64,000 nucleotides of DNA from Bacteroidia bacterium (GTDB taxonomy: Bacteria > Bacteroidota > Bacteroidia > UKL13-3): NCBI GenBank assembly GCA_020049855.1, contig JAGVLJ010000044.1:5900-69899 (forward strand), read 5' to 3'. Both the position numbers and the translations under genes were made by a program. Within the stretch, counting starts at the first letter, position 1; every line of letters starts with the position of its first letter. The notes beneath the pieces were generated by a model. That model did not search any database, was not told the DNA's origin, and saw nothing but the letters and a program-made list of their open reading frames with translations. Positions 4,495-41,200 of this stretch are shown here, piece after piece.

Positions 4495-4516
4495 TTTACG
4501 GTGGCTTTATTAAGTT

Positions 4517-4524
4517 CAAAGTTA
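4517..4524 (-). promoter_or_regulatory. candidate Bacteroidetes -7 promoter element (TAnnTTTG) for the fasciclin gene
   Basis: Minus strand reads TAACTTTG about 28 nt upstream of the ATG at 4494. This matches the Bacteroidetes sigma-A -7 consensus TAnnTTTG. Confidence 0.3.
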
Positions 4525-7944: not shown

Positions 7945-7956
7945 GCGAGAGAGGAG

Positions 7957-20644: not shown

Positions 20645-20647
20645 GAT

Positions 20648-24994: not shown

Positions 24995-27900
24995 ATGAAT
25001 CCCCCCATTTCAAGAATTAGAGTCTTTCTTTTCTTTTGTTTGCCACTGTTGTATTGCCATACAGCAATAGCACAAACATGTTCGTTCTCTGCTTCTACCT
25101 TGCGGGTTTGTTTAGGCACACCCCTTACATTTACTCCGGTCTTTTCCGGGGGCACTCCTGCCAAGTTTGAATGGGATTATGGGGACAGCAAAAAGGATTC
25201 GGTTCAAAAACCATCTTATAAATACAATAGCATCGGAACTTTTAGTGTAACGCTGAAAATAACATTCGTAGGAGGAGCCATTTGTAATGCAGGGCCGTTA
25301 AGCATCACGGTGCTTCCGCTTCCGGTAGCTGATATGACGGTAGAGTCGTTTCCGGTTCAATGTTTTCTGGGAAATTATTTTTGCCTCAAAGACCGATCAT
25401 ATGCTACGGCCGCTCCTTTAAGCAAACGGACTATTTTGTGGGGCGATGGCGGTGCCATTCAAAATACTCCATTATCTCAAAAAGATTTTTGTCAGAGCTA
25501 TGCTTCTATTGGTACGTTTACTCCGGTAATTGAAGTAGCCGACACCAATGGATGTATTGCACGAAAGGAATTGAAGGATGCAATAAAGATAGCAGTTGAT
25601 GTGGATGCTGCTTTTACCTATAGTACTATATTTGGCTGTGGAATCAGATCGGGGTTTTTATATAACAAATATCTCACCGACCGGAATGATGTGAAAAACT
25701 TCTGGTGGGATTTTGGAGACGGAAGTCCACCGGTGAAAAATCCTAACCTGGGGTGGGACTCAATAGGGTATTTTTATGATAAGCCCGGTACGTTTATTGC
25801 CAAACTTATTTTTGAATCTACGGGTGGTTGTTTCGATACGTTCGCATTGCCAATTATCAACTATCCTAAGCCCAATTTTAATATTACCAGAAGTATCTCA
25901 CCCAACCCTGTATGCTACCGGGACAGAGCCTCGGTTTTTCTTTCTGCCTCGCCTTCTCCCCAGGTGGTTTATACATGGGTCATCTTTGATGAGTTTGGGC
26001 AAAACCCACAGCCATTGATGGGGAGAACAACGTATGTGCCATCTAATTTTATTACCAGTTGTGGCGATTTCCCGATTCGATTACAAGCTGGGATTATGGG
26101 TTGTGACACGATTTTTCCTTTTGATACCATTCACGTAAAGGGGCCAATGGCAGATTTAGAACGCACACCATTTACAATCGGAAATAAATACCAATGCGAT
26201 GGTGATACAGCTTATCTGCCTCCTAACAATATACACTTCTCGGATTTTTGCAGCACAAGTATTAAGTTTCTATGGAATTTTGGCGACCCCTATGCAGCAC
26301 AATGCACTACTGACACGAGAAAAGGAATTAATACAGGTATGAACTGTAACTTTTCACAAGACTCAATCCAAGTAAAGCATAAGTATAAATCCGGGGTAGA
26401 TAGTTGCTACAATGTTCGGATGTATTTAATCGATACCGTTACCGGATGTTGGGATTATGATTCGGCTAATGTAGTGGTAGGATCGCCCAAATCTACACGT
26501 ATAACCGCTTCCAAGCCGTGGTGTTTATACATTCCAATTGAATTTGACCTTGATAATGCCGAACCCCAATGTGAAAAGCAGAATGTTTGGATAATGCCAG
26601 ATTCGGCATGTGGTAACAGAACCTGGATCAAACTGTATGATCCGAATTTCCGTTGGATTTATGACTACACTTGCAACTCAAGCGGATGGGTAACAGTAGG
26701 GTTTATTGTACAAAACGGAAACTGCTATGATACCACTTGGTATCACAACATGATGTATTTTAAAGATTTTGACGGGAGTATTGTTACCAAAGTTGACAGA
26801 ACTTGTGACAGCTTGCGTATTACTATTTCCTTCAGGGATTCCCTCCAAAAGGGGGTTTCACTTGTAAGATGGGACTTTGAAAACGGAGCATTTATTATCG
26901 TTGATACGCTTGATTCAAATTACGTCAAACTTCCATCCCGTAGCTATACCTATTACCAGCCTGGAATAAAAACACCACTGGTAACATTGCGAAATGACAG
27001 CGGGTGCGAACGTTATGCCTATACAGTTATTAACTGGGGACATTATGCTACTTTTCGCTACGATTCTGTAATTTGCTCTAATTCGCAGGTGACGTTTGTT
27101 GATTCGGTGCGATATTTTCACCAGGTAATGACCATTGATACAGTTCCCTGGTGGCGAAGGGATACAACCCGTCACAAGTTGTTCTGGGACTTTGGTGATG
27201 GATCCGCAATTGTACGCGGAGCTATACCCTCTCATATTTACACAATGCCCGGCATTTATACCGTAAAAATGACTTCGGTGGATAGTTTTAATTGTGCCTA
27301 TGTAACCGAGCGAAAGATACGGGTTGGCGGAGTAAAGGCAGGATTCGGTCTATCGGATACCTTATTTGTTTGCGGGCAAATTGTGCGATCATATGATTCG
27401 TCAGTTGTTTTACCACAGCAACTATCCGGTTACCCCCAATTGGATTCGGTAGTAGCATGGACCTGGAATTTCGGAGATGGGAAAACATTCAGTCGTTTGA
27501 AAAATCCGTACCATGACTATACAAGTTATGGTCAATTCAAGATTACGCTTACCGCATTTAACTCCAATGGTTGTATGGATTCAGTTACAAAGGTTCTTCG
27601 CATCAAGGGGCCGCAACCTTTTTTTGAGGTAGATGGAGATACTATTGGCTGTGTACCCTTTACGGTTAAATTCAAAAATACATCGGTTGATACCAAATAC
27701 TGGGTGTGGGGCTATGGGGATTCAACAGTTTACTCAAGCAGTATTTTCGAAAATGTGCAACACACTTATACAAAGCCGGGCATTTACGATGTGCGGGTCT
27801 CGGGAGTAGATAGTTTTCAAAATCCCATTACACAAAATTTATACTATTGTACAGGCATATTTCCTGATATTTTAAATCCTTTCCAAAAACGCATTCGCAT

Positions 27901-28744
27901 ATATGTGCTGCCGGTTCCGCAGGCCAATTTTAGTTTTACACAACCTGTATGTGCCGGGCAACCCATTTTTTTCAAAGACTCCTCAGATATTATTTACACT
28001 CATTACCGGTGGAATTTACCGGGTGAAGATTCGCTGGTGGCCGATCCTCCCGTAAATACAATAGCATACATTTTTTCTCAGGCTGGAACATATAATGTGG
28101 TGTACACTCCTACGTATACACCACGCCCGGGTTTGCCCTATTGCCCAGATACCATACGTAAAACCGTTCAGGTGGTAGATGTAAAAGCCGATTTTAAAAC
28201 GGACACTGTTCAATCAAAAGATGCAGCATTCTATTTTACTAATACATCGGTAAACGGGGTGCTGTTTCACTGGGACTTCGGACACCCGTCCTCACTGGCA
28301 AAAAATTTCTCCTCGGCATTCAACGGTTTTCATGACTACACCGGAGATACCGGTTATTTTACAGTATGCCTCACTGTTACCAGCCCCGAAGGATGCGTTG
28401 ACAGTGTTTGTAAAGTGGTACACAACGAATTTTATCCGTATATTTTTATTCCAAATGTATATACTCCCGATAATAGTGACGGGTTTAATGACGCATTTGA
28501 TATATCTATTAAAGGAGAAGATTTTTATAACCTGATTATTTATAATCGCTGGGGCGAAGTAGTTTTCAAAGGGGACAGAGATGGGGATAAAAATGATGGT
28601 GTTAACTGGAACGGACGTAAATTTAATACCGGAGAACAATGCCCCTCCGGAACCTATTATTTTATTTTTGAGTATCATTTTTCAAATGATAGATGGAATA
28701 CAGTTAAAAAAGGTCCGGTAATGTTACTAAGGCCCGATAACTAA
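24995..28744 (+). CDS. large secreted PKD-repeat protein with T9SS type-B (gliding-motility-associated) C-terminal sorting domain
   Basis: 1249 aa; signal peptide; at least 6 PKD-like repeats (WDFGDGS, WNFGDGK, WNFGDP, HWDFGHP). The C-terminus (IPNVYTPDNSDGFNDAF...YNRWGEVVF...WNG...GTYYF) matches the type-B CTD. Confidence 0.8.
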   Translation: MNPPISRIRVFLFFCLPLLYCHTAIAQTCSFSASTLRVCLGTPLTFTPVFSGGTPAKFEWDYGDSKKDSVQKPSYKYNSIGTFSVTLKITFVGGAICNAGPLSITVLPLPVADMTVESFPVQCFLGNYFCLKDRSYATAAPLSKRTILWGDGGAIQNTPLSQKDFCQSYASIGTFTPVIEVADTNGCIARKELKDAIKIAVDVDAAFTYSTIFGCGIRSGFLYNKYLTDRNDVKNFWWDFGDGSPPVKNPNLGWDSIGYFYDKPGTFIAKLIFESTGGCFDTFALPIINYPKPNFNITRSISPNPVCYRDRASVFLSASPSPQVVYTWVIFDEFGQNPQPLMGRTTYVPSNFITSCGDFPIRLQAGIMGCDTIFPFDTIHVKGPMADLERTPFTIGNKYQCDGDTAYLPPNNIHFSDFCSTSIKFLWNFGDPYAAQCTTDTRKGINTGMNCNFSQDSIQVKHKYKSGVDSCYNVRMYLIDTVTGCWDYDSANVVVGSPKSTRITASKPWCLYIPIEFDLDNAEPQCEKQNVWIMPDSACGNRTWIKLYDPNFRWIYDYTCNSSGWVTVGFIVQNGNCYDTTWYHNMMYFKDFDGSIVTKVDRTCDSLRITISFRDSLQKGVSLVRWDFENGAFIIVDTLDSNYVKLPSRSYTYYQPGIKTPLVTLRNDSGCERYAYTVINWGHYATFRYDSVICSNSQVTFVDSVRYFHQVMTIDTVPWWRRDTTRHKLFWDFGDGSAIVRGAIPSHIYTMPGIYTVKMTSVDSFNCAYVTERKIRVGGVKAGFGLSDTLFVCGQIVRSYDSSVVLPQQLSGYPQLDSVVAWTWNFGDGKTFSRLKNPYHDYTSYGQFKITLTAFNSNGCMDSVTKVLRIKGPQPFFEVDGDTIGCVPFTVKFKNTSVDTKYWVWGYGDSTVYSSSIFENVQHTYTKPGIYDVRVSGVDSFQNPITQNLYYCTGIFPDILNPFQKRIRIYVLPVPQANFSFTQPVCAGQPIFFKDSSDIIYTHYRWNLPGEDSLVADPPVNTIAYIFSQAGTYNVVYTPTYTPRPGLPYCPDTIRKTVQVVDVKADFKTDTVQSKDAAFYFTNTSVNGVLFHWDFGHPSSLAKNFSSAFNGFHDYTGDTGYFTVCLTVTSPEGCVDSVCKVVHNEFYPYIFIPNVYTPDNSDGFNDAFDISIKGEDFYNLIIYNRWGEVVFKGDRDGDKNDGVNWNGRKFNTGEQCPSGTYYFIFEYHFSNDRWNTVKKGPVMLLRPDN

Positions 28745-28745
28745 A

Positions 28746-29636
28746 TTATTTTAGCGCATCATGCTTGGTCTTCCTTAAACGATACTGGCAAATCCACTCA
28801 TAGCTAACGCTCAGGTTAAGCATGCATATCCATAAAATAAGCCCTATGCTTAGCGGCCAAAATAGCTTTAACGGAACCAATAGATAAGTGTGCATCAACA
28901 GGAAGTAATTGAAAATATCAATGAGGATAACCGGAATGCTGCGAATGGTTAAATAAGCCATTTCTCCTTTTTTATTTCCACAATAAGCCGAGGGTTTAAA
29001 ACCAATGAATATGGCAAACAGGCCATATAGAATTTTTGTAGTCACCAGATAAAACAAAAAAGCAGGGACAAAGCATACAAACGAACAAAGGACAACTACA
29101 CCCAGTAAAAACACTGTCACGAAAGAGGCGGCAAATAAACAAGTAACTACCCCGAGTTGAATTAGGTTAATCGCAGTTACAAGCCTGATGAGGAAGCCCG
29201 TGCCCGAAGTGATTTGAACAGGTTTGAAAACGGCCAAAAAACGAATAGGTGTGCGTGATGCGATTTTAGTTTTTATCCAATAAATAAACGAAAGTGCTTT
29301 TTCAAGTTCCAGCAATATTTCCCAATTGGGCAAGCGAAATACGCCCCTTTTCGGATTGGGCTTAAGGGGTTGTTCAGATGTTATACCACCTTTTAGCAGG
29401 CTATGATCAACTAATACATCATACGCTTCTTTGATGCGAATAAATTCTTCGGCAGCCAGTGATTGTTCGGTAAATGATTGAAACCGGTCGGGGTGTGTTT
29501 TTTTTGCCAATTCCCTGAAACGATCTTTCAGTACTGTTTCATCAAAAACAGGTTCTGGGAGTCCTAATATGAAAAGCGCTTCGGTAACCGACATGCTGAA
29601 ATTTTTGGTAAAGATACAACGCCAAACATCAGGCAA
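28746..29636 (-). CDS. J-domain (DnaJ-like) polytopic membrane protein
   Basis: N-terminal J-domain-like segment (ALFILGLPEP...KDRFRELAKKTHPDR) followed by 5-6 TM helices. An alternative start at MSVTEAL (29594) is possible. Convergent with the PKD protein, separated by 1 nt. Confidence 0.55.
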   Translation of the reverse strand: MPDVWRCIFTKNFSMSVTEALFILGLPEPVFDETVLKDRFRELAKKTHPDRFQSFTEQSLAAEEFIRIKEAYDVLVDHSLLKGGITSEQPLKPNPKRGVFRLPNWEILLELEKALSFIYWIKTKIASRTPIRFLAVFKPVQITSGTGFLIRLVTAINLIQLGVVTCLFAASFVTVFLLGVVVLCSFVCFVPAFLFYLVTTKILYGLFAIFIGFKPSAYCGNKKGEMAYLTIRSIPVILIDIFNYFLLMHTYLLVPLKLFWPLSIGLILWICMLNLSVSYEWICQYRLRKTKHDALK

Positions 29637-29965
29637 CGGTTTAAACCTGATAGGGATTTTTACTCATTTTTTTAGTTTAAATTAACCGATACCTATGCCA
29701 TATCATGTTTAAAAGCCTAAAGTTTATGTATCACTTGTTTTAATTCACAGGGTACAGGAGCTATTGGCCAACAGCGTTTGGCCCAATTTATCTAAACACT
29801 TGTTAGGGAATACAGGCTGCCATTTTTTCAAGACATTGAATAGCAGTGATATAATTAGGATATCAAGCGCAAATTTTTTTGTCAAAGGTCATTCGTCTAA
29901 AAAATTTAAGGCTAAACAGTTAAAACAATTTTCTTTGGCGGGTATTATTCAATGTATAAAGCGAT

Positions 29966-32677
29966 ATGCCCCGATTCAACATCTTACCCCTTAGTTTAAA
30001 AGTAATTTTGGTATTTTTGGCGGGGTATCTTTCATCAAGTGCCCAAACAACTTTTACCGCTTCAAATGGCAATTGGGCTTTGGCATCCAATTGGAGTAAT
30101 GGTGTTCCCTCCGCTTTAGTTGCAGCTACCATTAAGGTAGGGAGTATTTGCACCGTTAATGTTGCTAATGCTCAGTGTGCCTCGTTAACTTTATCCGGTG
30201 GAAACGGGGAAACCACGTTAATCATTTCCAGCGGAAATTCCCTCACCGTAAGCGGAGCAACAACCATTAATGCCCCTACCAATGGCAACAAGACTAATGC
30301 GATAAATGTTTGGGGCAATTTTATCTCTAGTTCGCTTGTTTTAAATACTTCAAATAACAATAACCGTGATTGTGAATTTGCAATGAATGGAGGCACTGCT
30401 ACCATTAATGGCAATATCACTATGAATGGTACTGCTTCCCGAAATGCGATTAATTTTTTAGGAGGCGGCACCTTAAAAGTTACCGGGACAATTTCAGGAG
30501 GAACTATAGTGCCCGGCACCGGAACCGTGGAATTTGGCAATGCAGGTGTTCAAAGTATTCCAGCATACGCTTACAATGATGTTACCATTAGCGGAAGCGG
30601 AACAAAAAGTATTGGAGGAAATTTAACATTTGCTGACCTGATACTTGCCTCCGGTGATTTATCAATTGGTGGAAACTCTTTGATAATTGACGGAACCATT
30701 AGCGGTTCGGGTACAATTACCGGGTCGCTAAGTTCAAATCTTACCATTAATGCTGCCAATAGTTTGCTCATGACACAAACCAACTCTGGTACACGCAGCC
30801 TGAATAACCTTACTTATAACGGGTCAGGTATCCTTTCCATTTCCAATGGTTTGGAGATAGGTGGAACTCTAACAGTGTCTGCGGGTACATTAGCCTCAGG
30901 AGGCAATCTTACCATGACCTCAACTGCCAGCGGAGATGCCCGAATAGCGCAATCAGCCGGTAGTATTACCGGAAACGTCATTGTACAAAAGTTTATTCCG
31001 GCAGGCAGTGGCAGGCGATGGCTGCATATGGGTTCACCTATTCAAAATTTTACATGGAGTCAGGTTATAGATGATATACTTATTTCAGGACCTGTTGCAG
31101 GTGGATTTGATGTGAATGGATCGAATTATCCTTCGGCCTATACTTACACAGAAAGCGTTGCAGGCAATGCGGGACCTAACGGGTGGAATTATCCTTCCAA
31201 TGTAACCAATTCAACCCCCAATGGTCTGGGGTTAAAATTATTTTTTAGAGGAGATCGTAACCCCGGCAGATTAAATTACAACGGGCCTGCACCTAATGCG
31301 GTAACTCTTGATTTTGTGGGAATCGTAAACTCGGGCACTCAGAACATGGGGGTAACATATACTAACAATGGAAATAGTACTTGGGACGGATGGAATTTTG
31401 TTTCTAATCCCTACCCCAGTCCCATAGACTGGAATGCGGCAAGCGGATGGACAAAAACAAATATTAGCGGCACTGTTTACGTTTGGAATGCACAGTCAGG
31501 AACCTATGCTACATGGAATGGTGCAAGTGGTACCAATGGAATGAGCAACGGTCGCATAGCTATGGGTCAGGGATTTTGGGTGAAGGCTACCTCTGCAAGC
31601 CCGAGCTTAGTGATGACCGAGTCTGTTAAAACCGGTATCGCTACAACCGGGTTTTTCAAAACAAACCTGGGAGAAACCCAAACTCTTCGTATTTCCATGG
31701 TACAAGACAGTCTCGTTTGGGATGATGCTGTATTTAACTTCAATGATACCTATACTCCTGAATATGTTAAAGAGAGTGGGGATGCATTAAAATTGTTTAA
31801 CACCAGTTTAAACCTTTGGTCAATTACAAAAGACAATCAGGATTTGGTAATAAATAACCTGTCTTTGCCCGTTGCTATTGATACCATTCTGTTGGGAATG
31901 AAATCGAATCTTGGCGGGATTTTTACGCTTTCCTTTTCAACCGACTCCCTTCCCTCTCATCTTAGTTTATTTTTGATTGATAGTTACCGCAATAAAACTA
32001 TTGATATAAGAAAAGAGAAAACTTGGAAAGTATTAATTAATGTGGAGCCTGAGTCGTATGCCATCGGGCGGTTGAAACTGGTGTTAATTAATCAGAAGGC
32101 AACTGTTATTAATGCTTGGACAGAAACCAATCAAACAAACAAATCAGTTATTGTAAATTGGAGTTCAGCGAATGAAATAAATACTGTTCGTTATGAGTTG
32201 GAGCGTTCAACAAATGGGGTGGATTTTGTTGGAATTGCAACTGTGGATTTGAATGATACACTAATTCTCGCTGCCGGTAATTACTTTGTTACGGATAAGC
32301 ACCCTCAGGTAGGGACGAATTATTATCGAATTAAACGAATAAGCACCACAGGGGTAGTGATTTATTCTGATACAGTTTCAGGCAAAATAATTGAAACCAA
32401 CAGCACAGGTATAAATCAGCTATCGAAATCGGCCATTCAGGTATATCCAATGCCTGTTTCAAACAAAGCTACTTTTGTATTACCTGAACAATTATCGGGA
32501 GATATAAAAATAGAATTGGTTTCTGCAGATGGGAGTGTAGTAGCATCATCAAGTTATACTAAAACTATTTCCGGATCAGAAATTTCTCTTAATACTGCTT
32601 CTTTTACTGCCGGGTATTATATCCTACGAATTAGTTCGGCTACGGCTGTTGTTGTTGCTAAATTAATTAAGCAGTAA
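29966..32677 (+). CDS. secreted beta-helix/adhesin-like protein with T9SS type-A C-terminal sorting domain
   Basis: 903 aa; signal peptide; long Gly/Thr/Asn-rich repeats typical of parallel beta-helix. The C-terminal about 80 aa (VYPMPVSNKATF...YYILRISS...) matches the Por-secretion CTD. Confidence 0.75.
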   Translation: MPRFNILPLSLKVILVFLAGYLSSSAQTTFTASNGNWALASNWSNGVPSALVAATIKVGSICTVNVANAQCASLTLSGGNGETTLIISSGNSLTVSGATTINAPTNGNKTNAINVWGNFISSSLVLNTSNNNNRDCEFAMNGGTATINGNITMNGTASRNAINFLGGGTLKVTGTISGGTIVPGTGTVEFGNAGVQSIPAYAYNDVTISGSGTKSIGGNLTFADLILASGDLSIGGNSLIIDGTISGSGTITGSLSSNLTINAANSLLMTQTNSGTRSLNNLTYNGSGILSISNGLEIGGTLTVSAGTLASGGNLTMTSTASGDARIAQSAGSITGNVIVQKFIPAGSGRRWLHMGSPIQNFTWSQVIDDILISGPVAGGFDVNGSNYPSAYTYTESVAGNAGPNGWNYPSNVTNSTPNGLGLKLFFRGDRNPGRLNYNGPAPNAVTLDFVGIVNSGTQNMGVTYTNNGNSTWDGWNFVSNPYPSPIDWNAASGWTKTNISGTVYVWNAQSGTYATWNGASGTNGMSNGRIAMGQGFWVKATSASPSLVMTESVKTGIATTGFFKTNLGETQTLRISMVQDSLVWDDAVFNFNDTYTPEYVKESGDALKLFNTSLNLWSITKDNQDLVINNLSLPVAIDTILLGMKSNLGGIFTLSFSTDSLPSHLSLFLIDSYRNKTIDIRKEKTWKVLINVEPESYAIGRLKLVLINQKATVINAWTETNQTNKSVIVNWSSANEINTVRYELERSTNGVDFVGIATVDLNDTLILAAGNYFVTDKHPQVGTNYYRIKRISTTGVVIYSDTVSGKIIETNSTGINQLSKSAIQVYPMPVSNKATFVLPEQLSGDIKIELVSADGSVVASSSYTKTISGSEISLNTASFTAGYYILRISSATAVVVAKLIKQ

Positions 32678-32724
32678 TCAAAACAGGGAACGTGATTTCA
32701 CTTCTTTTTCAAGGATATTTACAA

Positions 32725-32937
32725 ATGGCCAATTCTAATAGGGGTAGACATGTTTTATTCGTATTTGGGTTTTTATTAGCTTCTCAATTGTTATTTGCCC
32801 AGGGTGATGGTGGTGGGGGTGATCCTGATGTGCCTATTGACGGTGGACTGGGAATACTGCTTGCTGCCGGTGTAACCTATGGAGTAAAGCGGATAGTAAC
32901 ATCATCAAAGGAAGCTTCTTTTGATGAGCAGGAGTAA
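32725..32937 (+). CDS. mini-protein (about 70 aa precursor) consisting essentially of a signal peptide plus a PEP-CTERM/GlyGly-CTERM-like sorting signal
   Basis: MANSNRGRHVLFVFGFLLASQLLFA | QGDGGGGDPDVPIDGG-LGILLAAGVTYGV-KR-IVTSSKEASFDEQE. Its stop TAA overlaps the ATG of the XrtF-like gene (TAATG). The ORF track begins at a GTG at 32692. Confidence 0.45.
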   Translation: MANSNRGRHVLFVFGFLLASQLLFAQGDGGGGDPDVPIDGGLGILLAAGVTYGVKRIVTSSKEASFDEQE

Positions 32938-33461
32938 TGAAACGTTTTTTGATTCGGGCAGTATTGCTCATCGGTATCTGGTTATTTCTTTTTTATATAG
33001 TCATAATTCCGCACACCCATATTAATCGCGATTTGTGTTATTTGGTTGCAAAAAATACTACCCTGTTACTTTCTTTTTTTGATTCCGGTTATCATGTGTC
33101 ATTTGTGTTTAGGGATAAGTACTTTTTAAATACCGTTTGTTATTACAATACTTGTGTGGTGGGGGTTGGCCGTCCATGCAATGGGCTTGAATTGTTTGCG
33201 CTGTTTACAGGCTTTGTAATCGCCTTTCCTGGAAATTGGAAACATAAACTCTGGTTTATTCCATCAGGTGTTTTATTCATACATGTATTAAATGTTCTTC
33301 GGGTTGCCAGCCTTACCTTAATTCAACTCAATTATCCGAAGTACCTTCAGTTTAATCACAAGTACACTTTTACGGTCATTGTGTATGCCGTTACCTTTTC
33401 GTTATGGATGATTTGGGTAAACCGGTTTGGTGCGGTCAATAAATCATTCCATGAGGCATAA
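32937..33461 (+). CDS. xrtF: exosortase family protein, XrtF-like
   Basis: 174 aa polytopic membrane protein with a candidate catalytic Cys in GRPCNGLELFAL and a conserved-looking Arg (NVLRVASL). Size and lineage fit the Bacteroidetes XrtF subfamily. Overlaps the next ORF. Confidence 0.5.
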   Translation: MKRFLIRAVLLIGIWLFLFYIVIIPHTHINRDLCYLVAKNTTLLLSFFDSGYHVSFVFRDKYFLNTVCYYNTCVVGVGRPCNGLELFALFTGFVIAFPGNWKHKLWFIPSGVLFIHVLNVLRVASLTLIQLNYPKYLQFNHKYTFTVIVYAVTFSLWMIWVNRFGAVNKSFHEA

Positions 33462-33819
33462 AATTCTTTTCGGGTTTCTTGTAGCTACTTTTTTGTTTCT
33501 TTCTGTTACCACAAACCCCGCGGCTATTGCAAGTCTCGGGTTGGTATTCTTATCGTGGGGGCTTACCCTTATTTTATTACAAACCCTTATACTTCACTAT
33601 TGGGCATTGAATAGGCAGATAACCATTTTGTGGCTGGGTTGTTATTTACTTTTGTTTAGCTGTTTATGTTTGTTAAAAAGCAGAATAACCACTCCTTTGT
33701 TAGGTATACATCGGGTTGATTCCCTTCTGAGTTATTCTATATATTTTATTAAATCACCTGTTCCTTTAATGGTAACTTTAGTAAGTATCAGGGTATATCA
33801 TCTAAGCAGGCAACGCTGA
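33451..33819 (+). CDS. exosortase F system-associated small membrane protein (candidate)
   Basis: About 122 aa with 3-4 TM segments. It overlaps the XrtF-like gene by 11 nt (the alternative TTG start at 33427 gives 35 nt), consistent with the obligate XrtF partner gene. Confidence 0.4.
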   Translation: MRHKILFGFLVATFLFLSVTTNPAAIASLGLVFLSWGLTLILLQTLILHYWALNRQITILWLGCYLLLFSCLCLLKSRITTPLLGIHRVDSLLSYSIYFIKSPVPLMVTLVSIRVYHLSRQR

Positions 33820-33867
33820 TACAACTCAATCTTTTTCTGTATTTTTACCGAATTAAATTAAAAAAAG

Positions 33868-34392
33868 ATGAAAGCTCCGTTCAACTTACAACAATGGATT
33901 GCAGAAAATAAACATTTACTCAAACCTCCCGTAGCCAATAAAAACTTGTATCCCGAGGGAAGCGATTATATAGTGATGATTGTGGGCGGCCCGAATGCTC
34001 GCAAGGATTATCATTACAACGAAACAGAGGAGTTGTTTTATCAGTTAGAAGGCGAAATTACGGTAAGAACCCAACAGGATGGCAAAGCCGTTGATATAAA
34101 CCTAAAAGCAGGAGATATGTTTTTACTGCCTGCAAAAATTCCGCATTCTCCCGGTAGAACGGCAGAATCGGTAGGTTTGGTTATAGAGCGAGTTCGGGAA
34201 GGTAAAGGGTATACTGATGGACTATTATGGTTTTGCGAAAAATGCAACACTAAACTTCATGAAACTTATTTTGAGTTACAAAACATTGAAACCGATTTTA
34301 TCCCTCATTTTAAGCATTATTATGGGTCGGAAGAATTACGAACCTGTAAAAACTGTGGGCACGTGATGGAAACTGATCCGCGATTTATATGA
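33868..34392 (+). CDS. nbaC: 3-hydroxyanthranilate 3,4-dioxygenase
   Basis: 174 aa cupin; HAAO signature region (IVMIVGGPNARKDYHYNETEELFYQLEG, FLLPAKIPHSP) and a C-terminal Cys4 rubredoxin-like site (CEKC...CKNC). Confidence 0.85.
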   Translation: MKAPFNLQQWIAENKHLLKPPVANKNLYPEGSDYIVMIVGGPNARKDYHYNETEELFYQLEGEITVRTQQDGKAVDINLKAGDMFLLPAKIPHSPGRTAESVGLVIERVREGKGYTDGLLWFCEKCNTKLHETYFELQNIETDFIPHFKHYYGSEELRTCKNCGHVMETDPRFI

Positions 34393-35411
34393 AAATAGAT
34401 ATTCACGCACATATATTACCCAAAACTTGGCCCGACCTGAAACAAAAATACGGTTACGGGGGATTTGTATACATGGATCATTATAAAGAGGGTAGTGCAC
34501 GCATGATGAAAGATACCGGTCAGTTTTTTCGTGAGGTGCAGCAAAACTGTTGGGATCCTGAGGCTATATTGGTTGATATGGACGCTCATCGGGTTGATAA
34601 AATGGTATTGTGTAACGTTCCTGTACTATTTAATTATTGGGCAAAACCGGAGCATACCCTTGACTGGAGTCAGTTTTTAAATGACCACTTAGCCGGAGTG
34701 CAACAAAATTACGATAATCGGTTTATTGGTCTTGGAACATTACCAATGCAACATATTGATTTTGCAATTCAGGAAATGGAGCGATGCAAAACGCAACTTA
34801 AGTTGCCTGGGATCGAAATTGGTTCTCATATTCAGGAAAAAAATCTGGACGATCCATCTTTCTTTCCGTTTTATGAAGCGGCACAGGATTTAGGAATGGC
34901 CATTTTTGTTCATCCATGGGATATGATGGGACAGGAGAAAATGCCCAAATACTTTTTACCCTGGCTGGTAGGTATGCCTGCCGAAACATCATTGGCCATT
35001 TGTTCTATGATTTTTGGGGGAGTATTTGATAAATTCCCTAAATTAAAAGTCATGTTTGCACACGGTGGCGGATCGTTTCCTTTTACCGTTGGGCGAGTGT
35101 CGCATGGGTGGAACTGCCGTCCCGATTTGTGCAATATAAATGATATTAAAGACCCCCGGGTATATATCGGGAAATTTTGGATTGACGGAATAACCCATGA
35201 TGATGACGCACTGAAGTACCTAGTGAGTATGTTTGGGGCTGAAAAAATTGCTTACGGAACAGATTACCCTTTTCCGCTGGGAGATTTGGAACATGGCAAG
35301 TTCATTGAGCAAATGAAAGACATGAGCGCAGATGTAAAGGAGCAATTACTCAGTAAAACAGCAGCCAACTTTCTGGGACTGGAATTGCCCGAACCGAATT
35401 CCATAAGGTAA
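34389..35411 (+). CDS. 2-amino-3-carboxymuconate-6-semialdehyde decarboxylase (amidohydrolase_2 family)
   Basis: 340 aa; MKIDIHAHILP metal-binding start, and HPWD and HGGG motifs typical of ACMSD. Its start overlaps the HAAO stop (ATGA). Confidence 0.8.
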   Translation: MKIDIHAHILPKTWPDLKQKYGYGGFVYMDHYKEGSARMMKDTGQFFREVQQNCWDPEAILVDMDAHRVDKMVLCNVPVLFNYWAKPEHTLDWSQFLNDHLAGVQQNYDNRFIGLGTLPMQHIDFAIQEMERCKTQLKLPGIEIGSHIQEKNLDDPSFFPFYEAAQDLGMAIFVHPWDMMGQEKMPKYFLPWLVGMPAETSLAICSMIFGGVFDKFPKLKVMFAHGGGSFPFTVGRVSHGWNCRPDLCNINDIKDPRVYIGKFWIDGITHDDDALKYLVSMFGAEKIAYGTDYPFPLGDLEHGKFIEQMKDMSADVKEQLLSKTAANFLGLELPEPNSIR

Positions 35412-35867
35412 CAATTTTATGAATAGAATTAAATAGCACGGTACTTTATACAGCCTTGTGGTTGTGTAGGTTTTAATTCCTGCTTCTTGTCTTTTTTGAT
35501 TGATCTGCGTTGTATTTTCCTTTTTGATTTTGTAAAAAAAACATGCTTATCTATCACTTCTTTTATTTTCGGCTTCCGATGCGTTTATTCTTATGACCCC
35601 ATTACCTATGATCTTACTAAAATAGAATGCAATAATATTTAGTTGAAGCGGGGTTGACCCGCCTATATCAGCATCATGAAAAGATTAATAGACTGAGGCT
35701 ATTTTTAAAATGGGTTTAAATCTTAATAGGATTATTGCTTATTGAGTATTGATATTAAAATTCCATCTCTAATAAAACGCTGGATGAGATTGAACTTGGG
35801 AGACGTATTTTCTTTTTGAATGCCCACAGTAAGCGTTATCTCTAGCACAAACAAAACGAAATATGGA

Positions 35868-36347
35868 TTAGTCCTCAAGTTTTTTTACCAAACGGGCTGG
35901 GTTTCCTACCCACAATTCGTTGTCGGGAACATTTTTAGTTACCACACTCCCTGCGCCTATCATCACATTTTTCCCAATAGTAATGCCCCCTAAGATGGTA
36001 GCATTGGCACCAATAGAAGCACCTGCTTTTAGTATTGTTGTTTGAAACGCATTGGGATATTGTTTGGAACGGGGGTATTTATCGTTGGTGAAAGTTACGT
36101 TGGGGCCAATGAATACATTGTTTTCTATTCGTATACCGTTCCATAAGTAAACTCCGCACTTTACGGTTACATTATTACCTATTACCACATCATCTTCAAT
36201 AAACGTGTGGCTGTTTATATTACAATTTTTACCAATTATTGCACCCCGAAGTACAACGGCAAACTGCCATATCCGGGTTTGAGCGCCTATATTTTTCGTT
36301 TGAACATCGGCTGTAGGATGAATAAAAATTTCCTGGTTGCTATTCAT
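35868..36347 (-). CDS. hexapeptide-repeat (LbH) acetyltransferase
   Basis: 159 aa; tandem [LIV]GxxxxI hexapeptide repeats ([31 protein letters not shown]...). Confidence 0.75.
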
Positions 36348-36986
36348 AACTTCCTTTTTTTTGCAAACGGTAAAAATACTAAAGTAAATCTGAAATTCTC
36401 TGTGATGATTTGGAGAATTGCTTAAACAATAAAGAGGGAATCAATATTTCATCCTTTATTGTTTAAAATTAAATTAAACTATTGGTTATTGTAAATTATT
36501 CAAAATGTTTCCTTCAGGGTGCTTGATTACTCGGCTGCTTTTACGGCAGTTTTCAATTCAGGAAGTGGTGATAAAGCCTTCATACTGCTTCGCTGCTTGT
36601 GGCTGTAACCTGCGGCTGTAAATGTCTGTTATGAGTACTCTAGCCGATACACGCATCGGTTGAACTAATGCACTGTCTCAAGATTTGCTTCCCATTGGGC
36701 GAGCTCTTTTTCTCCATAACTTAAAACCACTATAGCTAATAATTTTCATGTACAAATGCGGTTGATGTAATTTCGTTGAACATAAATTCACCATTAGCTG
36801 AGCATACCTATAATTTCTTTTTGGTGTCCTGAAGCACCTGAAAGGTTTTTGAACTTGAAATCTTTTCCGCCTTGTATAAACACGGGGGAAAGGTTTTATT
36901 TACATACAAAAAGAGTAGAAGCCGTAAGGCAACCCATGCAAATAGAACTCTTCAAATTCTGTATCAGAAAAGGTGAACTTAAGGGT

Positions 36987-38260
36987 TTAGTTTATTATTT
37001 CAAAACCGGTGTAACTGTGCAATGCTGTTGGGATGCGTATTCCCTCTTCCGTTTGATTGTTTTCAAGCAGGGCTGCCACAATTCTGGGTAAAGCCAATGC
37101 GCTTCCGTTTAGGGTGTGTACCAGTTGATTTTTTCCATTTTTGTCTTTAAAACGGCATTTCATTCGGTTGGCCTGAAAGGTTTCAAAATTAGAGGTTGAG
37201 CTTACTTCTAACCAACGTTGCTGGGCAGCTGAAAAGACTTCAAAATCATAAGTAAGAGCCGATGCAAAACTCATGTCACCTCCACATAAACGCAGGATAC
37301 GGTAGGGCAATTCCAGTTTTCTGAGCAGGCTTTTTACATGTTCAACCATCTCCTCCAATACCTTGTACGAATTATCGGGATGAACCAACTGAACAATTTC
37401 AACTTTATCAAATTGATGCAGGCGATTTAATCCGCGAACATGGGCTCCATAGCTACCGGCTTCACGTCTGAAACAAGGTGTGTACCCTACATTTTTTACA
37501 GGTAGGTCTTCTTCTTTCAAAATCATATTCCGGTACAAGTTGGTAATAGGAACTTCGGCCGTTGGGATTAAGTATAAATCATCAATTGTTACATGATACA
37601 TTTGCCCTTCTTTGTCCGGAAGTTGCCCGGTGCCAAATCCCGAATCAGCATTCACCATATTCGGGGGCATAATTTCATAATAACCAGCCTTGACTGCTTC
37701 GTCAAGAAAGAAGTTAATAAGTGCGCGCTGCAAACGTGCTCCTTTTCCTTTGTACACCGGAAATCCGGCTCCTGTTATTTTATTACCTAATTCAAAATCT
37801 ATAATATCATATTTTGAAGTCAGTTCCCAATGAGGGATGGCTGATAGGTCTAATTTTGGCATGACGCCTTCAGCAAAAATCTCTTCGTTTTCTTCTGGGG
37901 TTATTCCTAATGGAACTGAAGGGTGGGGGGTATTTGGAATGACGAGGAGCAACTGCTGCACCTCTTTCTCAATCTGATTGAAGCGCTCTTCAACCCGGGT
38001 TGCTTTTTCCTTAATCTCTGTGCTGCGAATTTTTAGAGTATCGGCTTTTTCTTTTTTTTCACTTCTAAAAAGTTCCCCGATTTGTTTTGCCAAAAGATTT
38101 CCTTCGGCAAGTAATCCTTCGAGTTCAGTTTTTTTACTTCTTCTTTCTTCGTCAAGATCAACAATGCTGTTAATGATTACCTCAGCATTTTTAAAATTTT
38201 TTTTTTGAGTTTGGCAATTACTTCGTCTTTATTGCTTCTAATGGTATGTAGCTGTAGCAT
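36987..38260 (-). CDS. serS: seryl-tRNA synthetase; reading frame broken by a 1-nt frameshift in an A10 homopolymer (38197-38206)
   Basis: The ORF-track 368-aa fragment carries class II aaRS motifs. The N-terminal coiled-coil (MLQLHTIRSNKDEVIAKLKKK...) is encoded upstream in another frame. An 11th A restores KLKKKNFKNAEVIINSIVDLDEERR...AKQIGELF. Confidence 0.8.
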
Positions 38261-38278
38261 CTTTTTCTTTTTCTAAAA

Positions 38279-41200
38279 TCACTTCAATACAAATACTTTT
38301 TTATACACTACTCCTGTTTCTCCGGTTATTTTTACCATATAAATACCATTTACAACAGTGGTTAATGGAATTGAAACCGATTGGTTTCCGTTAAGTTTAA
38401 TCGCATAAACCGGTTGCCCTATGTCATTGATTAGTTCAATTTGTTGTATGTCTAAAGGAGAAGTTATGTTTAGTTGTGCGTTAGCCGGATTAGGGTAAAT
38501 TTTAACCAAATCGCTGAGCTGAGAAGTCGATCCGATTCCTGTTGCAAGAACCGAAATTTGCTGGCATTTACTTGTAAGGCAGTTCCCTTTTGTGAGAGTT
38601 AAACAAACGGTATAGTTCCCATTAGCGGTGTAAAAGTGGCTTACTGTTTTGGTTGTTGCCGAAGCACCATCTCCAAAATCCCATGAATAGGTGGTTGCAA
38701 CTGCGTCAGACGCATTAAAGGTTACAAGAGTTTGTCCGTTGCTGTTATGTGTAAATGAAGAGTCAATTACCATTACGGCAATCAACACACTATCGGTTAA
38801 GGGAGCACCGCAACTGTCAGAAATGATTATTGTATAATAAGCAGTTGCGGTGGGTAAAATTTGATACGAAGCATTGCTTCCAAGATTAACCCAGTTGTAG
38901 GTTATTGGCGGAGCACCACTGGTAGCACTTGCACTAAGTGTAACCTTATCTCGGAAACAGATAAAGGTATCTTTGCTAAGTGTTGCCTGCAATCGTTGTT
39001 TCACAAAAAGGGCAGCTAAGGCGGTTGTGTCACCGGCATCGCAACCGTTGGAGGCAATAGCCCTTATCACCGAATTATTCATAGTATCGGATACCTGAAA
39101 AGTAATAATGGAGTCGAACATGGCAGAAGCTAATGCATTCCAACTTTGGCCTCCATTAGTGCTGAATTGCCATTTGGTATTCGGAAGCGATTTGCTGGTA
39201 CTTCCATAGTTAAACGAAACCCATGCGTTGTGGCAAGCGGTAACATCGGAAGGAGTTCTTTTTATGGTTAATCCTGTATCAACCCAAAGGGTGGTTGTGT
39301 TACTGGTAATAGTGTTGCCACAGGTAGAACTTGTAAGGTTCATCCGGTATATATATTTATCGGATGCGGTAGTGACACCTGTAAGTAAGAGAGAGTCTGA
39401 ATTGCTGCCCACGAATGACCAACTTATCCCATTATTGGTGCTGCGTTGCCACTGGCGGGTAAGCGTGGCAGTACCTGCTGTTTGCGTTCGCAAAACAATG
39501 TTCCCGTTTACGCAAGCAGAAGAAGTAAGAGGCAGGTTGGAAACAAATGTCGGAGGTATATTGGTAGATGATGGAGTTGCATTGGCAGCTATTGCATATT
39601 TCCCACGTGCGCTGTCAGTGGCCATAATGGCTCTTACGGTTACCCAGTATTCAGTGTTGTTTGTTAAGCCTGTAAAAGTAAAAAACCGATTGGCAGATGA
39701 GGTAATTCCTTGTCCAACGTAATTGCCATTTACCAGAAGCATGGGCTCATACGCAATTGCACCATTTACAGCACTCCAACTAAGGTAAATCTGGTTGCTG
39801 CATATTTTGGTAGTTAATCCTCCGGGTGTTCCAAAAATGGTAAAGGTGGAATCACTAACCGAGCTGATGCTACTGTCAAGTGTGCGTACACGAATAAGTG
39901 CTTTAGAGGTCTGAATGAATGGAACTGTCCAGGTATACGATCGCGTACTGGCAGTAGTTGTGGCTATATTAATCCATGAATTTCCGGCATCGGTTGAATA
40001 TTGTACCTGCACATTTCCTGTCACAAATTTCGAATCCCATCTGATGTACTCGGTAGCACCGGGTGTGAATACTTCCCCTCCATTAGGATAAGTCACATCG
40101 AGTGTTGATGAATCAAATTCATAGGTAACAAAAAATTTCTGACTGATACCACTGTTCACATCACCGGTCACTTTAATAAACCATGGTCCGGCTGTAGGGT
40201 TATCAATGGTAACCTGTTCAATATTGTTCAAACTGTCGCGTCCTCGGGTTGCTACTGCACTATATGGAGCAACAGCGAGCACCCATGGCAGAGTTGAGTT
40301 TCCTAACCCATCAGTAATAGCAAGGTCTAAATCATTCACTAGTGCAATAGACGAGGAGGTGCTTCCGGCTGGGTCATTCCAAGTAAGCATCACCTTTAAC
40401 TTTTTACAATTTGCGGGTATTAAAATCATACGTGTACGCCCCAGCGAGCCAGGTTTAATGGTATCATTGAAATACCGGTTGCTTTCTAACGTTTTTACCA
40501 CACTTAAGGCATTTACCCTGCCGAAACCGAATTTGAAGTCAGGACCTGCATTTCCGAGGTCTTCGGCTGTATTTGCCAGCACACCCCTAATTAAAGCGGC
40601 ATCTGGATTTTGCCCACTGTTTAACTGGCGATAACGCTGGTAAATTTGGGCAACAATTCCTGTTACATTCGGAGTAGCCATGGAGGTACCATTAAGAGTT
40701 GCATAAATATTGGGGTAGTTTGTTGAGTTTACCGCAACTCCTACGGCAACCACTTCAGGTTTCAATCGGTTGTCTCGAATGGGTCCCCAAGCACTAAAAT
40801 TACTCATTACATCAAGCAGGTCAACAGCACCTACTACAACAGAGTTTTTACTTGCTTGAGAGCCGCTGTGTACAGTACGGTATCCTGCATTGGCTCCTGT
40901 GCCAGCACAATTATCTGTTTGAAAATTTCCGGCTGCAAACATGTGCGACAGGTAGGGGTTACTGTTTACTAAATTATCCAAATCCTGACTGCGCTGGTCG
41001 TAATCTCCACGGGTTGTACATGGGTCGCTACTATAGGCGTAAGAGTTGTTGGTCATCACAATATTTCGGGCACTCAATGCCGCAAACATTTCGCCAGGAA
41101 TATCACCAATAAAATCCCAGTTAAGTAACGTAGCTTTTGGCGCCATCCCGGTATTATTCTGATCTTTTAATCCTGCTCCGCCAATGGTACCAGTTACGTG

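Follow-up and report, generated by a model that had tools for sequence, protein, structure and literature searches.

The window (the whole stretch of DNA analysed, 64 kb long) contains three coupled genes on the + strand, which encode a mini-protein, an exosortase and a small membrane protein and whose presence is confirmed. In the order of transcription, a RemA/RemZ-like T9SS type-A cargo gene is followed by the genes for a PID-CTERM mini-protein, XrtX and a small XrtX-associated membrane protein, and the last three of these four genes overlap. The features of the locus are:

29966..32677, + strand: T9SS type-A cargo gene, 903 aa, with CTD matches to TIGR04183 and PF18962
32725..32937, + strand: PID-CTERM mini-protein gene, 70 aa (NF046080 match; PF28310 recorded on an identical public protein)
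32725..32799, + strand: predicted Sec signal peptide MANSNRGRHVLFVFGFLLASQLLFA, read from the sequence
32800..32832, + strand: the whole predicted 'cargo' of the mini-protein, 11 residues (QGDGGGGDPDV), with GGDPD conserved in the mini-protein subfamily
32833..32847, + strand: PIDGG signature motif, invariant in the alignment, the presumed exosortase recognition and cleavage site
32848..32934, + strand: transmembrane helix LGILLAAGVTYGV, then basic KR, then a 14-residue Ser/acidic tail
32937..33461, + strand: exosortase X (XrtX), 174 aa (NF046081 and TIGR04178)
33451..33819, + strand: small polytopic membrane protein, 122 aa (hhalign to xrtX-downstream proteins)

The mini-protein and exosortase genes meet at a TAATG junction, where the TAA of the former (32935-32937) and the ATG of the latter (32937-32939) have 1 nt in common, and the third ORF overlaps the end of the exosortase gene by 11 nt. 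The mini-protein ORF is open from a GTG at 32692 (81 aa), with an alternative ATG start at 32725 (70 aa). The ATG is the likelier start: gene calls in relatives give proteins of 64-66 aa whose alignment begins at that Met, and one public call has 70 aa. The third ORF is open from a TTG at 33427 (130 aa), and its conserved start is the ATG at 33451 (122 aa), as called in loci L081 and L082. The order and orientation of all three genes are kept in relatives with 52-82% exosortase identity, and crude dN/dS values against L081 are 0.14 for xrtX, 0.39 for the third gene and 0.53 for the mini-protein gene. Rfam detected no RNA family in positions 28000-38500, and a scan of positions 32300-34000 for sigma-70 promoters and terminators, which is ill-suited to Bacteroidota promoters, gave none above shuffled expectation. 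The idea that the mini-protein ORF extends the T9SS gene by read-through or frameshift was rejected, because the ORF lies in a different frame and encodes a predicted signal peptide of its own.

The mini-protein and third ORFs are both short and hydrophobic, and one public annotation of the same contig omits the third gene, as might be expected if both were chance ORFs and the exosortase were the sole real gene. The conservation of both ORFs at the protein level in relatives already refutes this explanation; furthermore, the mini-protein matches a curated HMM (NF046080) and thousands of homologous mini-proteins exist, which leaves chance a vanishingly small probability.

Profile comparisons identify the 174-aa enzyme as, by sequence, an exosortase X and not an XrtF. 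It matches the exosortase signature TIGR04178 with 58.5 bits (cutoff 23), which, together with the three coupled genes, bears out the original prediction of an exosortase cassette. Of the subfamily models, XrtX (NF046081) scores best, at 168.5 bits (E 1.2e-49, 161 of 168 profile positions), followed by XrtF (86.4 bits), XrtY (54.5 bits) and XrtH (52.6 bits). The XrtX score is 1.5 bits under the curated cutoff of 170, which sets the enzyme slightly apart from the curated family; its nearest relatives P0002, P0005 and P0006 all pass (170.4, 189.1 and 194.5 bits, respectively), and 10/10 more distant homologs tested score 171.7-257.5 bits. The PF09721 profile (254 positions) is about 100 residues longer than the enzyme, whose match to it is sub-threshold.

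The prediction had placed the enzyme in the XrtF subfamily, with a TIGR04127 protein as the third gene product and the mini-protein as the previously unassigned XrtF substrate. Older pipelines indeed name the enzyme 'exosortase family protein XrtF', XrtX proteins often score above the XrtF cutoff as well (for example, 92.4-101.9 bits), so that the two families are close, and there are weak cross-matches between TIGR04127 and NF046082. However, the TIGR04128 (XrtF) score of 86.4 bits is below the cutoff of 90 and far under the XrtX score, the third protein has no TIGR04127 match even at E<=10, and the mini-protein matches PID-CTERM, which is curated alongside exosortase X. Judged by these HMM scores, membership in XrtF is already refuted, and we regard the XrtF assignment as very improbable. 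XrtF (TIGR04128/TIGR04127), exemplified by Fjoh_1448/Fjoh_1449 of Flavobacterium johnsoniae, is a sister family with its own HMM; its members, like those of XrtX, are short Bacteroidota exosortases (about 175 aa) whose genes overlap that for a small membrane partner. Surface colonisation and biofilm formation require both Fjoh_1448 and Fjoh_1449, and in F. johnsoniae the most severe colonisation defects were those of the xrtF and partner mutants, with phenotypes that match those of porU and porZ mutants (PMC10936215; the supplement does not list the neighbours of Fjoh_1448/1449). No substrate has been assigned to XrtF in the literature (PMC10936215; bioRxiv 10.1101/2024.12.02.626408). At a true XrtF locus, that of Fulvivirga maritima, the one such locus inspected, the same adhesin family is accompanied by an analogous mini-protein whose motif reads PIGG in place of PIDGG and which goes undetected by NF046080. 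Thus, the proposal that the mini-protein is the missing XrtF substrate fails in its literal sense, the enzyme being XrtX, but stays tenable in a modified form, through the PIGG mini-protein at this XrtF locus.

Two segments of the enzyme contain candidate catalytic residues: GRPCNGLEL, with Cys81 (codon 33177-33179), and NVLRVASL, with Arg122 (codon 33300-33302); a third candidate is His141 (codon 33357-33359). In a 31-sequence alignment, C81, N119, R122, N140 and H141 are invariant, so that the Cys and Arg named in the prediction, as well as the Asn of a Cys/Arg/Asn triad, are conserved across the family. In an AF2 model of XrtX (pLDDT 89.3), Cys81 starts a helix after a three-stranded sheet, and the model combined with the positive-inside rule would put Cys81, Arg122 and His141 at the periplasmic side. 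No solved relative was found by a PDB sequence search or by Foldseek with the model, in which cGAS matches were spurious, and tblastn of XrtX against plasmids gave no match.

The third protein has no match to NF046082 or TIGR04127 at E<=10, whereas a membrane protein of about 150-190 aa follows xrtX in 77 of the 80 XrtX loci that we surveyed in species-representative genomes, and 9/9 of these downstream proteins tested match NF046082 (E 4e-48 to 1e-6, 28.6-162.9 bits), 2/9 reaching its curated cutoff of 75 bits. Alignment of the third proteins of the window clade to 79 xrtX-downstream proteins with hhalign gave a probability of 94.5% and an E-value of 8e-8 over residues 25-118, and a C-terminal SP(V/L)P motif is common to both sets. 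In an hmmsearch for the same homology, the E-values were 4e-4 for the window protein, 4e-7 for L081 and 2e-9 for L084, against a target set of three sequences, so that these are not database-scale values. The protein, which is conserved in L081, L082 and L084, is, by these profile comparisons, an N-terminally shortened, divergent and remote relative of the XrtX-associated membrane protein. The expectation of a small XrtF-type membrane partner is accordingly met by a membrane partner that follows the enzyme but that is related remotely to NF046082 and not to TIGR04127.

The mini-protein matches NF046080 (PID-CTERM) with 41.2 bits (cutoff 26, E 1e-10, profile positions 1-22 of 25), the sole NCBIfam match at E<=1, and is thus assigned by sequence to carriers of this curated sorting domain, also present in Pfam as PF28310. 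A basic/hydrophobic N-terminus is followed by GDGGGGDPD, VPIDGG, the helix LGILLAAGVTYGV, KR at 14 residues from the end, and an acidic tail. This amounts to a tripartite signal (PIDGG, one helix, basic residues) placed after a predicted N-terminal signal peptide with about 11 residues between the two, and confirms the prediction of a PEP-CTERM-like sorting signal essentially without cargo. The N-terminus has typical n, h and c regions, and A25 and Q26 are nearly invariant among 51 aligned mini-proteins, from which we infer signal peptide cleavage before Gln26 (..LFA|QG..). A heuristic cleavage predictor cut the window mini-protein too early, and its linker-length statistics were set aside. 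P37, I38, D39, G40 and G41 are invariant in the same 51 sequences; across 131 mini-proteins detected with a purpose-built HMM, the P, D and second G of the motif are 100% conserved. In alignment A3, conservation reaches 90% or more at G31, G32, D33, P34, D35 and V36, making GGDPD a conserved segment of the window subfamily, and the tails of the window clade exceed the usual KK..K/R-rich tail in length and acidity.

Three other identities were rejected. A classical PEP-CTERM is not supported, the motif being P-I-D instead of P-E-P and no PEP-CTERM model matching at E<=1; there was no match to GlyGly-CTERM/rhombosortase signals; and the lipobox reading of 'FAQNC' mini-proteins was dismissed, the Cys being replaced by Ser in close relatives.

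The small size is a property of the family. All 57 of 57 word-index matches are 47-122 aa long and carry PF28310, and a profile search yielded 4,194 cluster representatives at E<=1e-3, the best 150 of which are all 50-117 aa; no large protein with a PID-CTERM tail was present among the 57 matches or the best 150 of the 4,194. Every family member that could be inspected is a mini-protein, with a cargo of about 7-30 residues. In the 64-kb window, a motif scan found a single PID-CTERM ORF, the other P[ILVM]D matches being the C-terminus of an SDR enzyme and junk. The prediction of a distinct signal class is thus correct in that the signal differs from PEP-CTERM, but the class is not an unrecognised one, because it is already curated (NF046080/PF28310) as a named database family of about 4,200 cluster representatives. 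A literature search for PID-CTERM, XrtX and 'exosortase X' found no relevant paper, so that the system is known as database models only.

The window shares with the curated PID-CTERM/XrtX/partner system (NF046080, NF046081, NF046082, PF28310) its components, gene order, motif, invariant residues and phylum, Bacteroidota. It differs in its partner, which lacks about 40 N-terminal residues and escapes detection by NF046082, and in its mini-protein, whose mature segment is rich in Gly and Asp (GGDPD) and whose acidic tail is unusually long. PEP-CTERM/exosortase A (EpsH) of Proteobacteria and others resembles it in the tripartite signal (motif, helix, basic cluster) and in the polytopic enzyme with Cys and Arg. 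A genome usually encodes tens of PEP-CTERM proteins, which as a rule carry cargo of considerable size that is often rich in Ser and Thr, whereas the motif in the window is P-I-D-G-G and PID-CTERM cargo is a short peptide.

In the survey, a PID-CTERM mini-protein ORF was present at 52/80 XrtX loci, nearly always directly upstream and on the same strand, in line with the predicted conservation of the mini-protein beside the enzyme. At the other 28/80 loci, there was no mini-protein within 4 kb, and a search of these 28 for variant mini-proteins (signal peptide, C-terminal helix and basic tail) gave spurious matches only, with a filter that is insensitive, as it missed the GTG-initiated mini-protein of locus L161. 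A Wzc-like kinase gene lies divergently upstream at 28/80 XrtX loci, and other loci have Bac_transf or GT2 genes. This linkage to polysaccharide genes is shared with other exosortases and is frequent, for exopolysaccharide genes, in exosortase A systems; in the window, no polysaccharide genes were found beside the cassette. PID-CTERM, exosortase X and the XrtX-associated membrane protein have consecutive NCBIfam accessions (NF046080-NF046082), and PID-CTERM is, presumably in the curators' own description, the cognate signal of XrtX. The putative enzyme-substrate pairing rests on this naming and on adjacency, which is partial given the 28 loci without a mini-protein and the fact that most mini-proteins do not adjoin xrtX.

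The 903-aa protein encoded upstream has a predicted signal peptide, a beta-helix, a conserved 'NPYPSxIDW' module, beta-sandwich domains and a Por_Secre_tail CTD (residues 826-903; TIGR04183, 34 bits, cutoff 23; PF18962, 33.5 bits, cutoff 27, residues 826-901). Its AF2 model is all-beta (pLDDT 84.9), and Foldseek against the PDB yielded no more than generic matches to Ig/FN3-like adhesins and S-layer proteins, all of low TM-score. The 903-aa sequence alone gave no match to RemA or RemZ at E<=1e-3. A profile of 36 members of the cargo family matches F. johnsoniae RemA (residues 1094-1349, E 1.4e-23) and RemZ (residues 745-1022, E 6.6e-22), in both cases outside the CTD, which identifies the protein, at the level of sequence profiles, as a RemA/RemZ-like adhesin. 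Its gene is likely the fourth member of the cassette unit. This membership is absent from the original prediction.

Mini-proteins are frequently found next to such genes. A CTD protein is encoded immediately upstream of 22/57 mini-proteins compared to 3/198 control ORFs, and 40/69 mini-protein clusters (58%, median gap 36 nt) lie directly downstream of T9SS type-A cargo genes vs. 1.5% of controls; these counts are not phylogeny-corrected and come from a home-made CTD HMM cross-checked with Pfam on 30 sequences. The cargo pairing holds in 6/6 informative mini-protein-sampled loci, and 37 of the 46 CTD proteins directly upstream of mini-proteins are homologous to the non-CTD part of the 903-aa protein. 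We found no literature on the genes flanking remA or remZ. Because mini-proteins habitually lie right after RemA-like adhesin genes, these data suggest that the product acts on, or with, the adhesin at the cell surface.

Such adjacency could also be devoid of mechanistic meaning, if these are co-regulated surface genes or a mobile pair of shared ancestry and the XrtX product is independent of the adhesin, for example, an EPS-linked peptide. Many xrtX-adjoining mini-proteins have no T9SS gene upstream and lie beside Wzc-like or EPS genes, phylogeny is ignored in the counts, and T9SS cargo genes are abundant in these genomes, with at least three in the window. Against this, the excess of mini-protein clusters over control ORFs is large, one specific cargo family accounts for 37/46 cases, the gaps are short and some of the genes overlap, and the pairing extends across many families (Hymenobacter, Pedobacter, Salibacteraceae, Cesiribacteraceae, Fulvivirga and others) and recurs at an XrtF locus. 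We consider an adjacency without function doubtful. Our preferred reading of the locus is, on balance, a PID-CTERM/exosortase X system for protein sorting whose genes lie together with that of the surface adhesin it probably serves.

For the mechanism, we reason by analogy with the proposed PEP-CTERM/exosortase model, rhombosortase and archaeosortase A, and infer cleavage, its site and the acceptor alike. Archaeosortase A (ArtA) cleaves PGF-CTERM proteins at the motif and transfers the new C-terminus onto a lipid-containing moiety; it is distantly related to the window enzyme (TIGR04125, 33 bits), and its substrates are full-size proteins. Rhombosortase, an unrelated enzyme that offers a functional analogy for the inferred chemistry, likewise acts on full-size GlyGly-CTERM proteins, cleaving at the motif, after which the new C-terminus is attached to a lipid-containing moiety (PMC7468200, which summarises the general exosortase and rhombosortase mechanism). 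By this analogy, the mini-protein would be exported by Sec and lose its signal peptide, probably before Gln26; its C-terminal helix would retain it in the inner membrane and leave the basic tail on the cytoplasmic side. XrtX, with Cys, Arg and His at periplasmic helix ends, would cut at or next to PIDGG via a thioester on Cys81 and move the N-terminal peptide (about 11-14 residues) onto the amine of a lipid or sugar acceptor, leaving the helix behind; the partner membrane protein may be an obligatory co-factor. Given that the 'cargo' is no more than a short peptide, the most likely product would be a modified (lipo- or glyco-) peptide of small size, and not an anchored protein such as an enzyme or adhesin. 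That a peptide of about 11 residues should need 'sorting' is odd, and this counts against the best explanation.

A cargo of that size would also fit a mini-protein that is a stable small membrane subunit, a pseudo-substrate or regulator that occupies the XrtX active site or escorts the adhesin, any true substrates being other, unrecognised proteins. The motif and helix are the most conserved part of the mini-protein, many xrtX loci are without one, and each adhesin gene has its own, as expected of a cognate partner. There is, moreover, a likeness to type-B CTD cargo of T9SS, in which a small dedicated PorP/SprF-like gene directly downstream determines what becomes of the cargo on the cell surface (PMC12618676). 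In the present pairing, by contrast, the cargo has a type-A CTD, and the downstream gene encodes a predicted inner-membrane sorting-signal peptide of 60-90 aa, not an outer-membrane beta-barrel. Against a stable subunit, the absence of large PID-CTERM-tailed proteins among the matches inspected leaves no other substrate class in view, cleaved sorting signals have this same tripartite architecture, and the conserved GGDPD mature segment of the window subfamily suggests a functional product. A stable subunit is therefore unlikely.

Returning to the mini-protein as a processed substrate, a tentative and rather speculative extension is that PID-CTERM mini-proteins and their PIGG variants are substrates of XrtX and XrtF, each produced in concert with the RemA/RemZ-like adhesin whose gene immediately precedes its own, and that the lipid- or amino-sugar-linked peptide serves as an anchor, acceptor or adaptor for that adhesin, coupling the exosortase pathway to T9SS. 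If true, such coupling would explain why xrtF and partner mutants have phenotypes equal to those of porU and porZ mutants in F. johnsoniae.

Bacteroidota exosortases are important in colonising surfaces and forming biofilms, as is the case for XrtF in F. johnsoniae, and the window presents a complete candidate system at one locus: adhesin, cargo-less sorting peptide, enzyme and partner. If the adhesin link is not functional, the locus is an ordinary, slightly divergent member of a catalogued family. If it is functional, it would join two routes of surface sorting that have hitherto been considered apart, and would add a piece to the surface retention of type-A T9SS adhesins such as RemA.

The cassette consists of three plus-strand open reading frames, as the original prediction had described them:

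32725-32937, plus strand: mini-protein, 70 aa (ATG at 32725, TAA at 32935-32937; frame open from GTG 32692)
32937-33461, plus strand: exosortase, 174 aa (its ATG shares 1 base with the mini-protein TAA)
33451-33819, plus strand: third protein, 122 aa (from ATG 33451; 11-nt overlap with the exosortase stop)

Read from ATG 32725, the mini-protein can be aligned over its full length with relatives whose gene calls give 64-66 aa, and 70 aa is also its length in one public gene call. For the third ORF, ATG 33451 is the likeliest start, as in relatives, the originally proposed TTG 33427 being possible; one public annotation of this contig (L085) omits this gene (33451-33819), which is called in relatives. 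Minus-strand ORFs across the cassette region are all ≤45 aa and unsupported, and an Rfam scan of the region returned no RNA family. Located 3′ of the cassette (33868-35411, plus strand) are genes for a 3-hydroxyanthranilate 3,4-dioxygenase and an Amidohydro_2 (ACMSD-like) protein, a pair that keeps its position after the cassette in two loci of window relatives (L081 and L084), probably as a mere conserved neighbourhood. Elsewhere in the window, the seryl-tRNA synthetase gene (36987-38280, minus strand) appears frameshifted, with the first ~55 codons (MLQLHTIRSNKDEVIAKLKKK...) out of frame with a 368-aa ORF and the frame switch, which may be genuine or due to a sequencing error, located within an A-rich run near 38190. 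At 19907-21691 (plus strand), an MbnP-family gene precedes one for a di-haem cytochrome c peroxidase/MauG-like protein, a pair that we take to be of the MbnP/MbnH type.

Comparison of the 174-aa protein to curated models yielded 168.5 bits (E = 1.2 × 10−49) for Exosortase X (NF046081, cutoff 170), 86.4 bits for XrtF (TIGR04128, cutoff 90), and 58.5 bits for the exosortase signature (TIGR04178, cutoff 23). Because the NCBIfam scores favour NF046081 over TIGR04128, the enzyme is classified from its sequence as XrtX-like, with a score just below the curated threshold, and its initial identification as XrtF does not hold. Its nearest relatives (82, 58 and 53% identity) score 170.4, 189.1 and 194.5, respectively, with NF046081, and 10 of 10 remoter homologs are above the cutoff. 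Numerous XrtX proteins (the homologs P0002, P0006 and P0007, and others) also pass the 90-bit XrtF threshold, which accounts for the name 'XrtF' given to the window enzyme in older annotation; as pipelines without the newer NF046081 model label XrtX as XrtF, public 'XrtF' annotations are a mixture. Cys81, Asn119, Arg122, Asn140 and His141 are invariant in an alignment of 31 sequences, and the Cys and Arg are the very residues that had been put forward as catalytic candidates. The AlphaFold model of the window XrtX is confident (pLDDT 89.3), and no solved structure was found to be alike in searches with the sequence and the model. The order of the helices, read with the positive-inside rule, would place Cys81, Arg122 and His141 at periplasmic helix ends, which would be the expected position of PIDGG in a C-terminally anchored substrate.

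The mini-protein matches the PID-CTERM model (NF046080) with 41.2 bits (cutoff 26). This cargo-less family is already named in NCBIfam and Pfam and is not new as a class; a literature search on it found no publication. Enzyme relatives were scanned with one genome per species, and at least 459 were detected; the best 80 loci, all from Bacteroidota by title or obvious MAG mislabels, were studied. The search for a small ORF upstream of the enzyme in other genomes, suggested originally, was successful: with a C-terminal-domain HMM, a PID-CTERM mini ORF was detected in 52 of the 80 loci, nearly always directly upstream on the same strand, and no mini ORF was detected within 4 kb in the other 28. 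All minis share a putative signal peptide (often ..A|Q), a linker of 7 to ~30 Pro/Gly-rich residues (often with C-W-P-P-P-C; GGDPD in the window's subfamily), the motif [VI]-P-[IL]-D-G-G, a single helix, and K-K before a short tail. One homolog search returned 57 matches, all of them mini-proteins (47-122 aa, all with Pfam PF28310), and a second returned 4,194 cluster representatives at E ≤ 1 × 10−3, of which the best 150 were all 50-117 aa. Thus, the description of the protein as a sorting signal that carries hardly any cargo is correct and holds generally. Several minis can occur in one genome (loci L086/L090 on one JGI contig, L091, L108, L125 and L131), including two tandem minis upstream of xrtX on the 1.5-Mb contig of L125.

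Directly 3′ of xrtX, a membrane protein of ~150-190 aa is encoded in 77 of the 80 loci. The NF046082 model ('XrtX-associated membrane protein') matches proteins in this position from other genomes, mostly under its cutoff. The third protein of the window matched none of the curated NCBIfam models, NF046082 and TIGR04127 included, so that the proposed TIGR04127 membership is not supported. A window-clade profile aligned to proteins 3′ of xrtX elsewhere over residues 25-118 (probability 94.5%, E = 8 × 10−8), and a C-terminal SP(V/L)P motif is common to both groups. Given this alignment, the third protein is placed in the XrtX-associated membrane protein family as a short, divergent member, in line with the prediction of a small membrane partner after the exosortase.

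The three-gene unit is accurate as far as it goes, but it overlooked the gene upstream, with which all four genes are consecutive in the window, and likewise in L081 and L084:

29966-32677, plus strand: 903-aa protein with a type-A T9SS sorting domain (CTD) at the C-terminus

Outside the CTD, the family profile of this protein matches Flavobacterium johnsoniae RemA (E = 1.4 × 10−23), a gliding adhesin, and its homologue RemZ (E = 6.6 × 10−22); the predicted model is all-beta and multidomain (pLDDT 84.9). Among the xrtX-sampled loci, a CTD protein is the immediate same-strand upstream ORF for 22 of 57 non-redundant minis, compared to 3 of 198 control ORFs of ≥300 aa from the same loci (Fisher p = 1.6 × 10−13, uncorrected for phylogeny), and a Pfam check of ORFs upstream of minis confirmed the CTD in 21 of 30. 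In mini-sampled public contigs, a Por_Secre_tail protein was located 18-30 nt upstream of the mini or overlapping it in 6 of 6 informative cases, with xrtX near the mini in 0 of these 6; one metagenome genome contains at least 3 adhesin and mini pairs. In a second sample (66 metagenome loci and 6 mini-sampled look-up loci), a CTD gene precedes the mini in 39 of 65 informative cases, and xrtX follows it in only 11 of 59. Pooling gave 131 minis, which at 70% identity form 74 clusters; 69 of these have informative upstream sequence, and 40 of the 69 have a CTD gene upstream (median gap 36 nt; phylogeny uncorrected). Sequence was sufficient for 46 mini-paired cargo proteins, and 37 of them share homology with the 903-aa protein outside its CTD, the main exception being one clade with a Reprolysin/PKD protein. 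The window encodes two further T9SS cargo proteins, a PKD-repeat protein with a type-B CHU_C tail (24995-28744, plus strand) and an S8 peptidase with Por_Secre_tail (38279-42016, minus strand). Neither gene precedes a mini, which points to a pairing peculiar to RemA-like proteins. The genome pattern that emerges is a single XrtX with its partner and several minis, mostly behind RemA-like T9SS adhesin genes.

Some minis adjoin Wzc-like or EPS genes instead of T9SS adhesin genes. A divergent Wzc-like (Wzz plus P-loop) tyrosine-kinase gene lies ~1.4 kb upstream of xrtX in 28 of the 80 loci, and further loci have Bac_transf, GT2 and methyltransferase genes nearby. The Wzc-like, Bac_transf and GT2 neighbours represent the usual exosortase-EPS linkage, which is absent beside the cassette in the window.

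A homolog of the 903-aa protein led to a locus in the complete genome of Fulvivirga maritima (L161, CP089980.1), with the following operon:

Genes 1-3: GT4 glycosyltransferase; polyprenyl-phosphate sugar transferase; two NeuD/PglD-like acetyltransferases
Gene 4: exosortase that the curated models assign to XrtF (124.2 bits, cutoff 90; XrtX 115)
Gene 5: TIGR04127 partner (46.8 bits, cutoff 35); pair with XrtF at 1826-2765
Genes 6-7: LegC/PglE-like aminotransferase; RemA-like T9SS protein
Genes 8-9: 64-aa ORF (with the RemA-like gene, 4001-8328); PseB/PglF-like dehydratase

In the 64-aa ORF (VNQFFKIGVLFLLIAIYPCVVFAQGGGVPPPNPPAPVPIGGIELLLMAGGALGLKKIISSRKKK), a putative signal peptide is followed by a linker rich in Pro, then by PIGG, a helix and, last, a basic tail; NF046080 does not match it. 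The proposal of the mini as an XrtF substrate fails in the window, where the enzyme is XrtX, but a PIGG mini does sit at a true XrtF locus and is, at this one locus, a candidate XrtF substrate. This single locus, an amino-sugar biosynthesis operon, suggests that XrtF may use equivalent, so far unrecognised mini substrates and that an amino sugar could serve as the acceptor. On provisional, phylogenetically uncorrected counts, the association of minis with RemA-like T9SS adhesins is strong; as far as we found, it is undescribed before, and it extends to an XrtF locus.

The gene set, motifs, invariant residues and synteny were observed directly, and the steps of the mechanism are proposed by analogy, with archaeosortase A as a further analogue for cleavage and transfer of the mini. 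The model follows the proposed PEP-CTERM/exosortase scheme and rhombosortase (general mechanism in PMC7468200). The mini would be exported by Sec and its signal peptide removed, probably before Gln26. Such cleavage would fit the 'Q-rule' that applies to substrates of signal peptidase I in Bacteroidota. The C-terminal helix would retain the mini in the inner membrane, Cys81 of XrtX would attack at PIDGG, and the helix would stay behind while a peptide of ~11-14 residues is passed on to the amine of a lipid or sugar. The partner membrane protein would be required; in F. johnsoniae, mutants of xrtF and of its partner are identical in phenotype and phenocopy porU and porZ mutants (PMC10936215). 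The mode of RemA surface retention is still open (PMC12618676), and our preferred guess, which is speculation, is that the mini product acts at the cell surface together with the adhesin encoded beside it. Compared to the database-defined PID-CTERM/XrtX system, the window locus is a slightly divergent member, and it is neither an XrtF nor a classical PEP-CTERM system. As a family assignment, the locus is ordinary; its interest rests on the odd cargo-less substrate and the association with a RemA-like T9SS adhesin.
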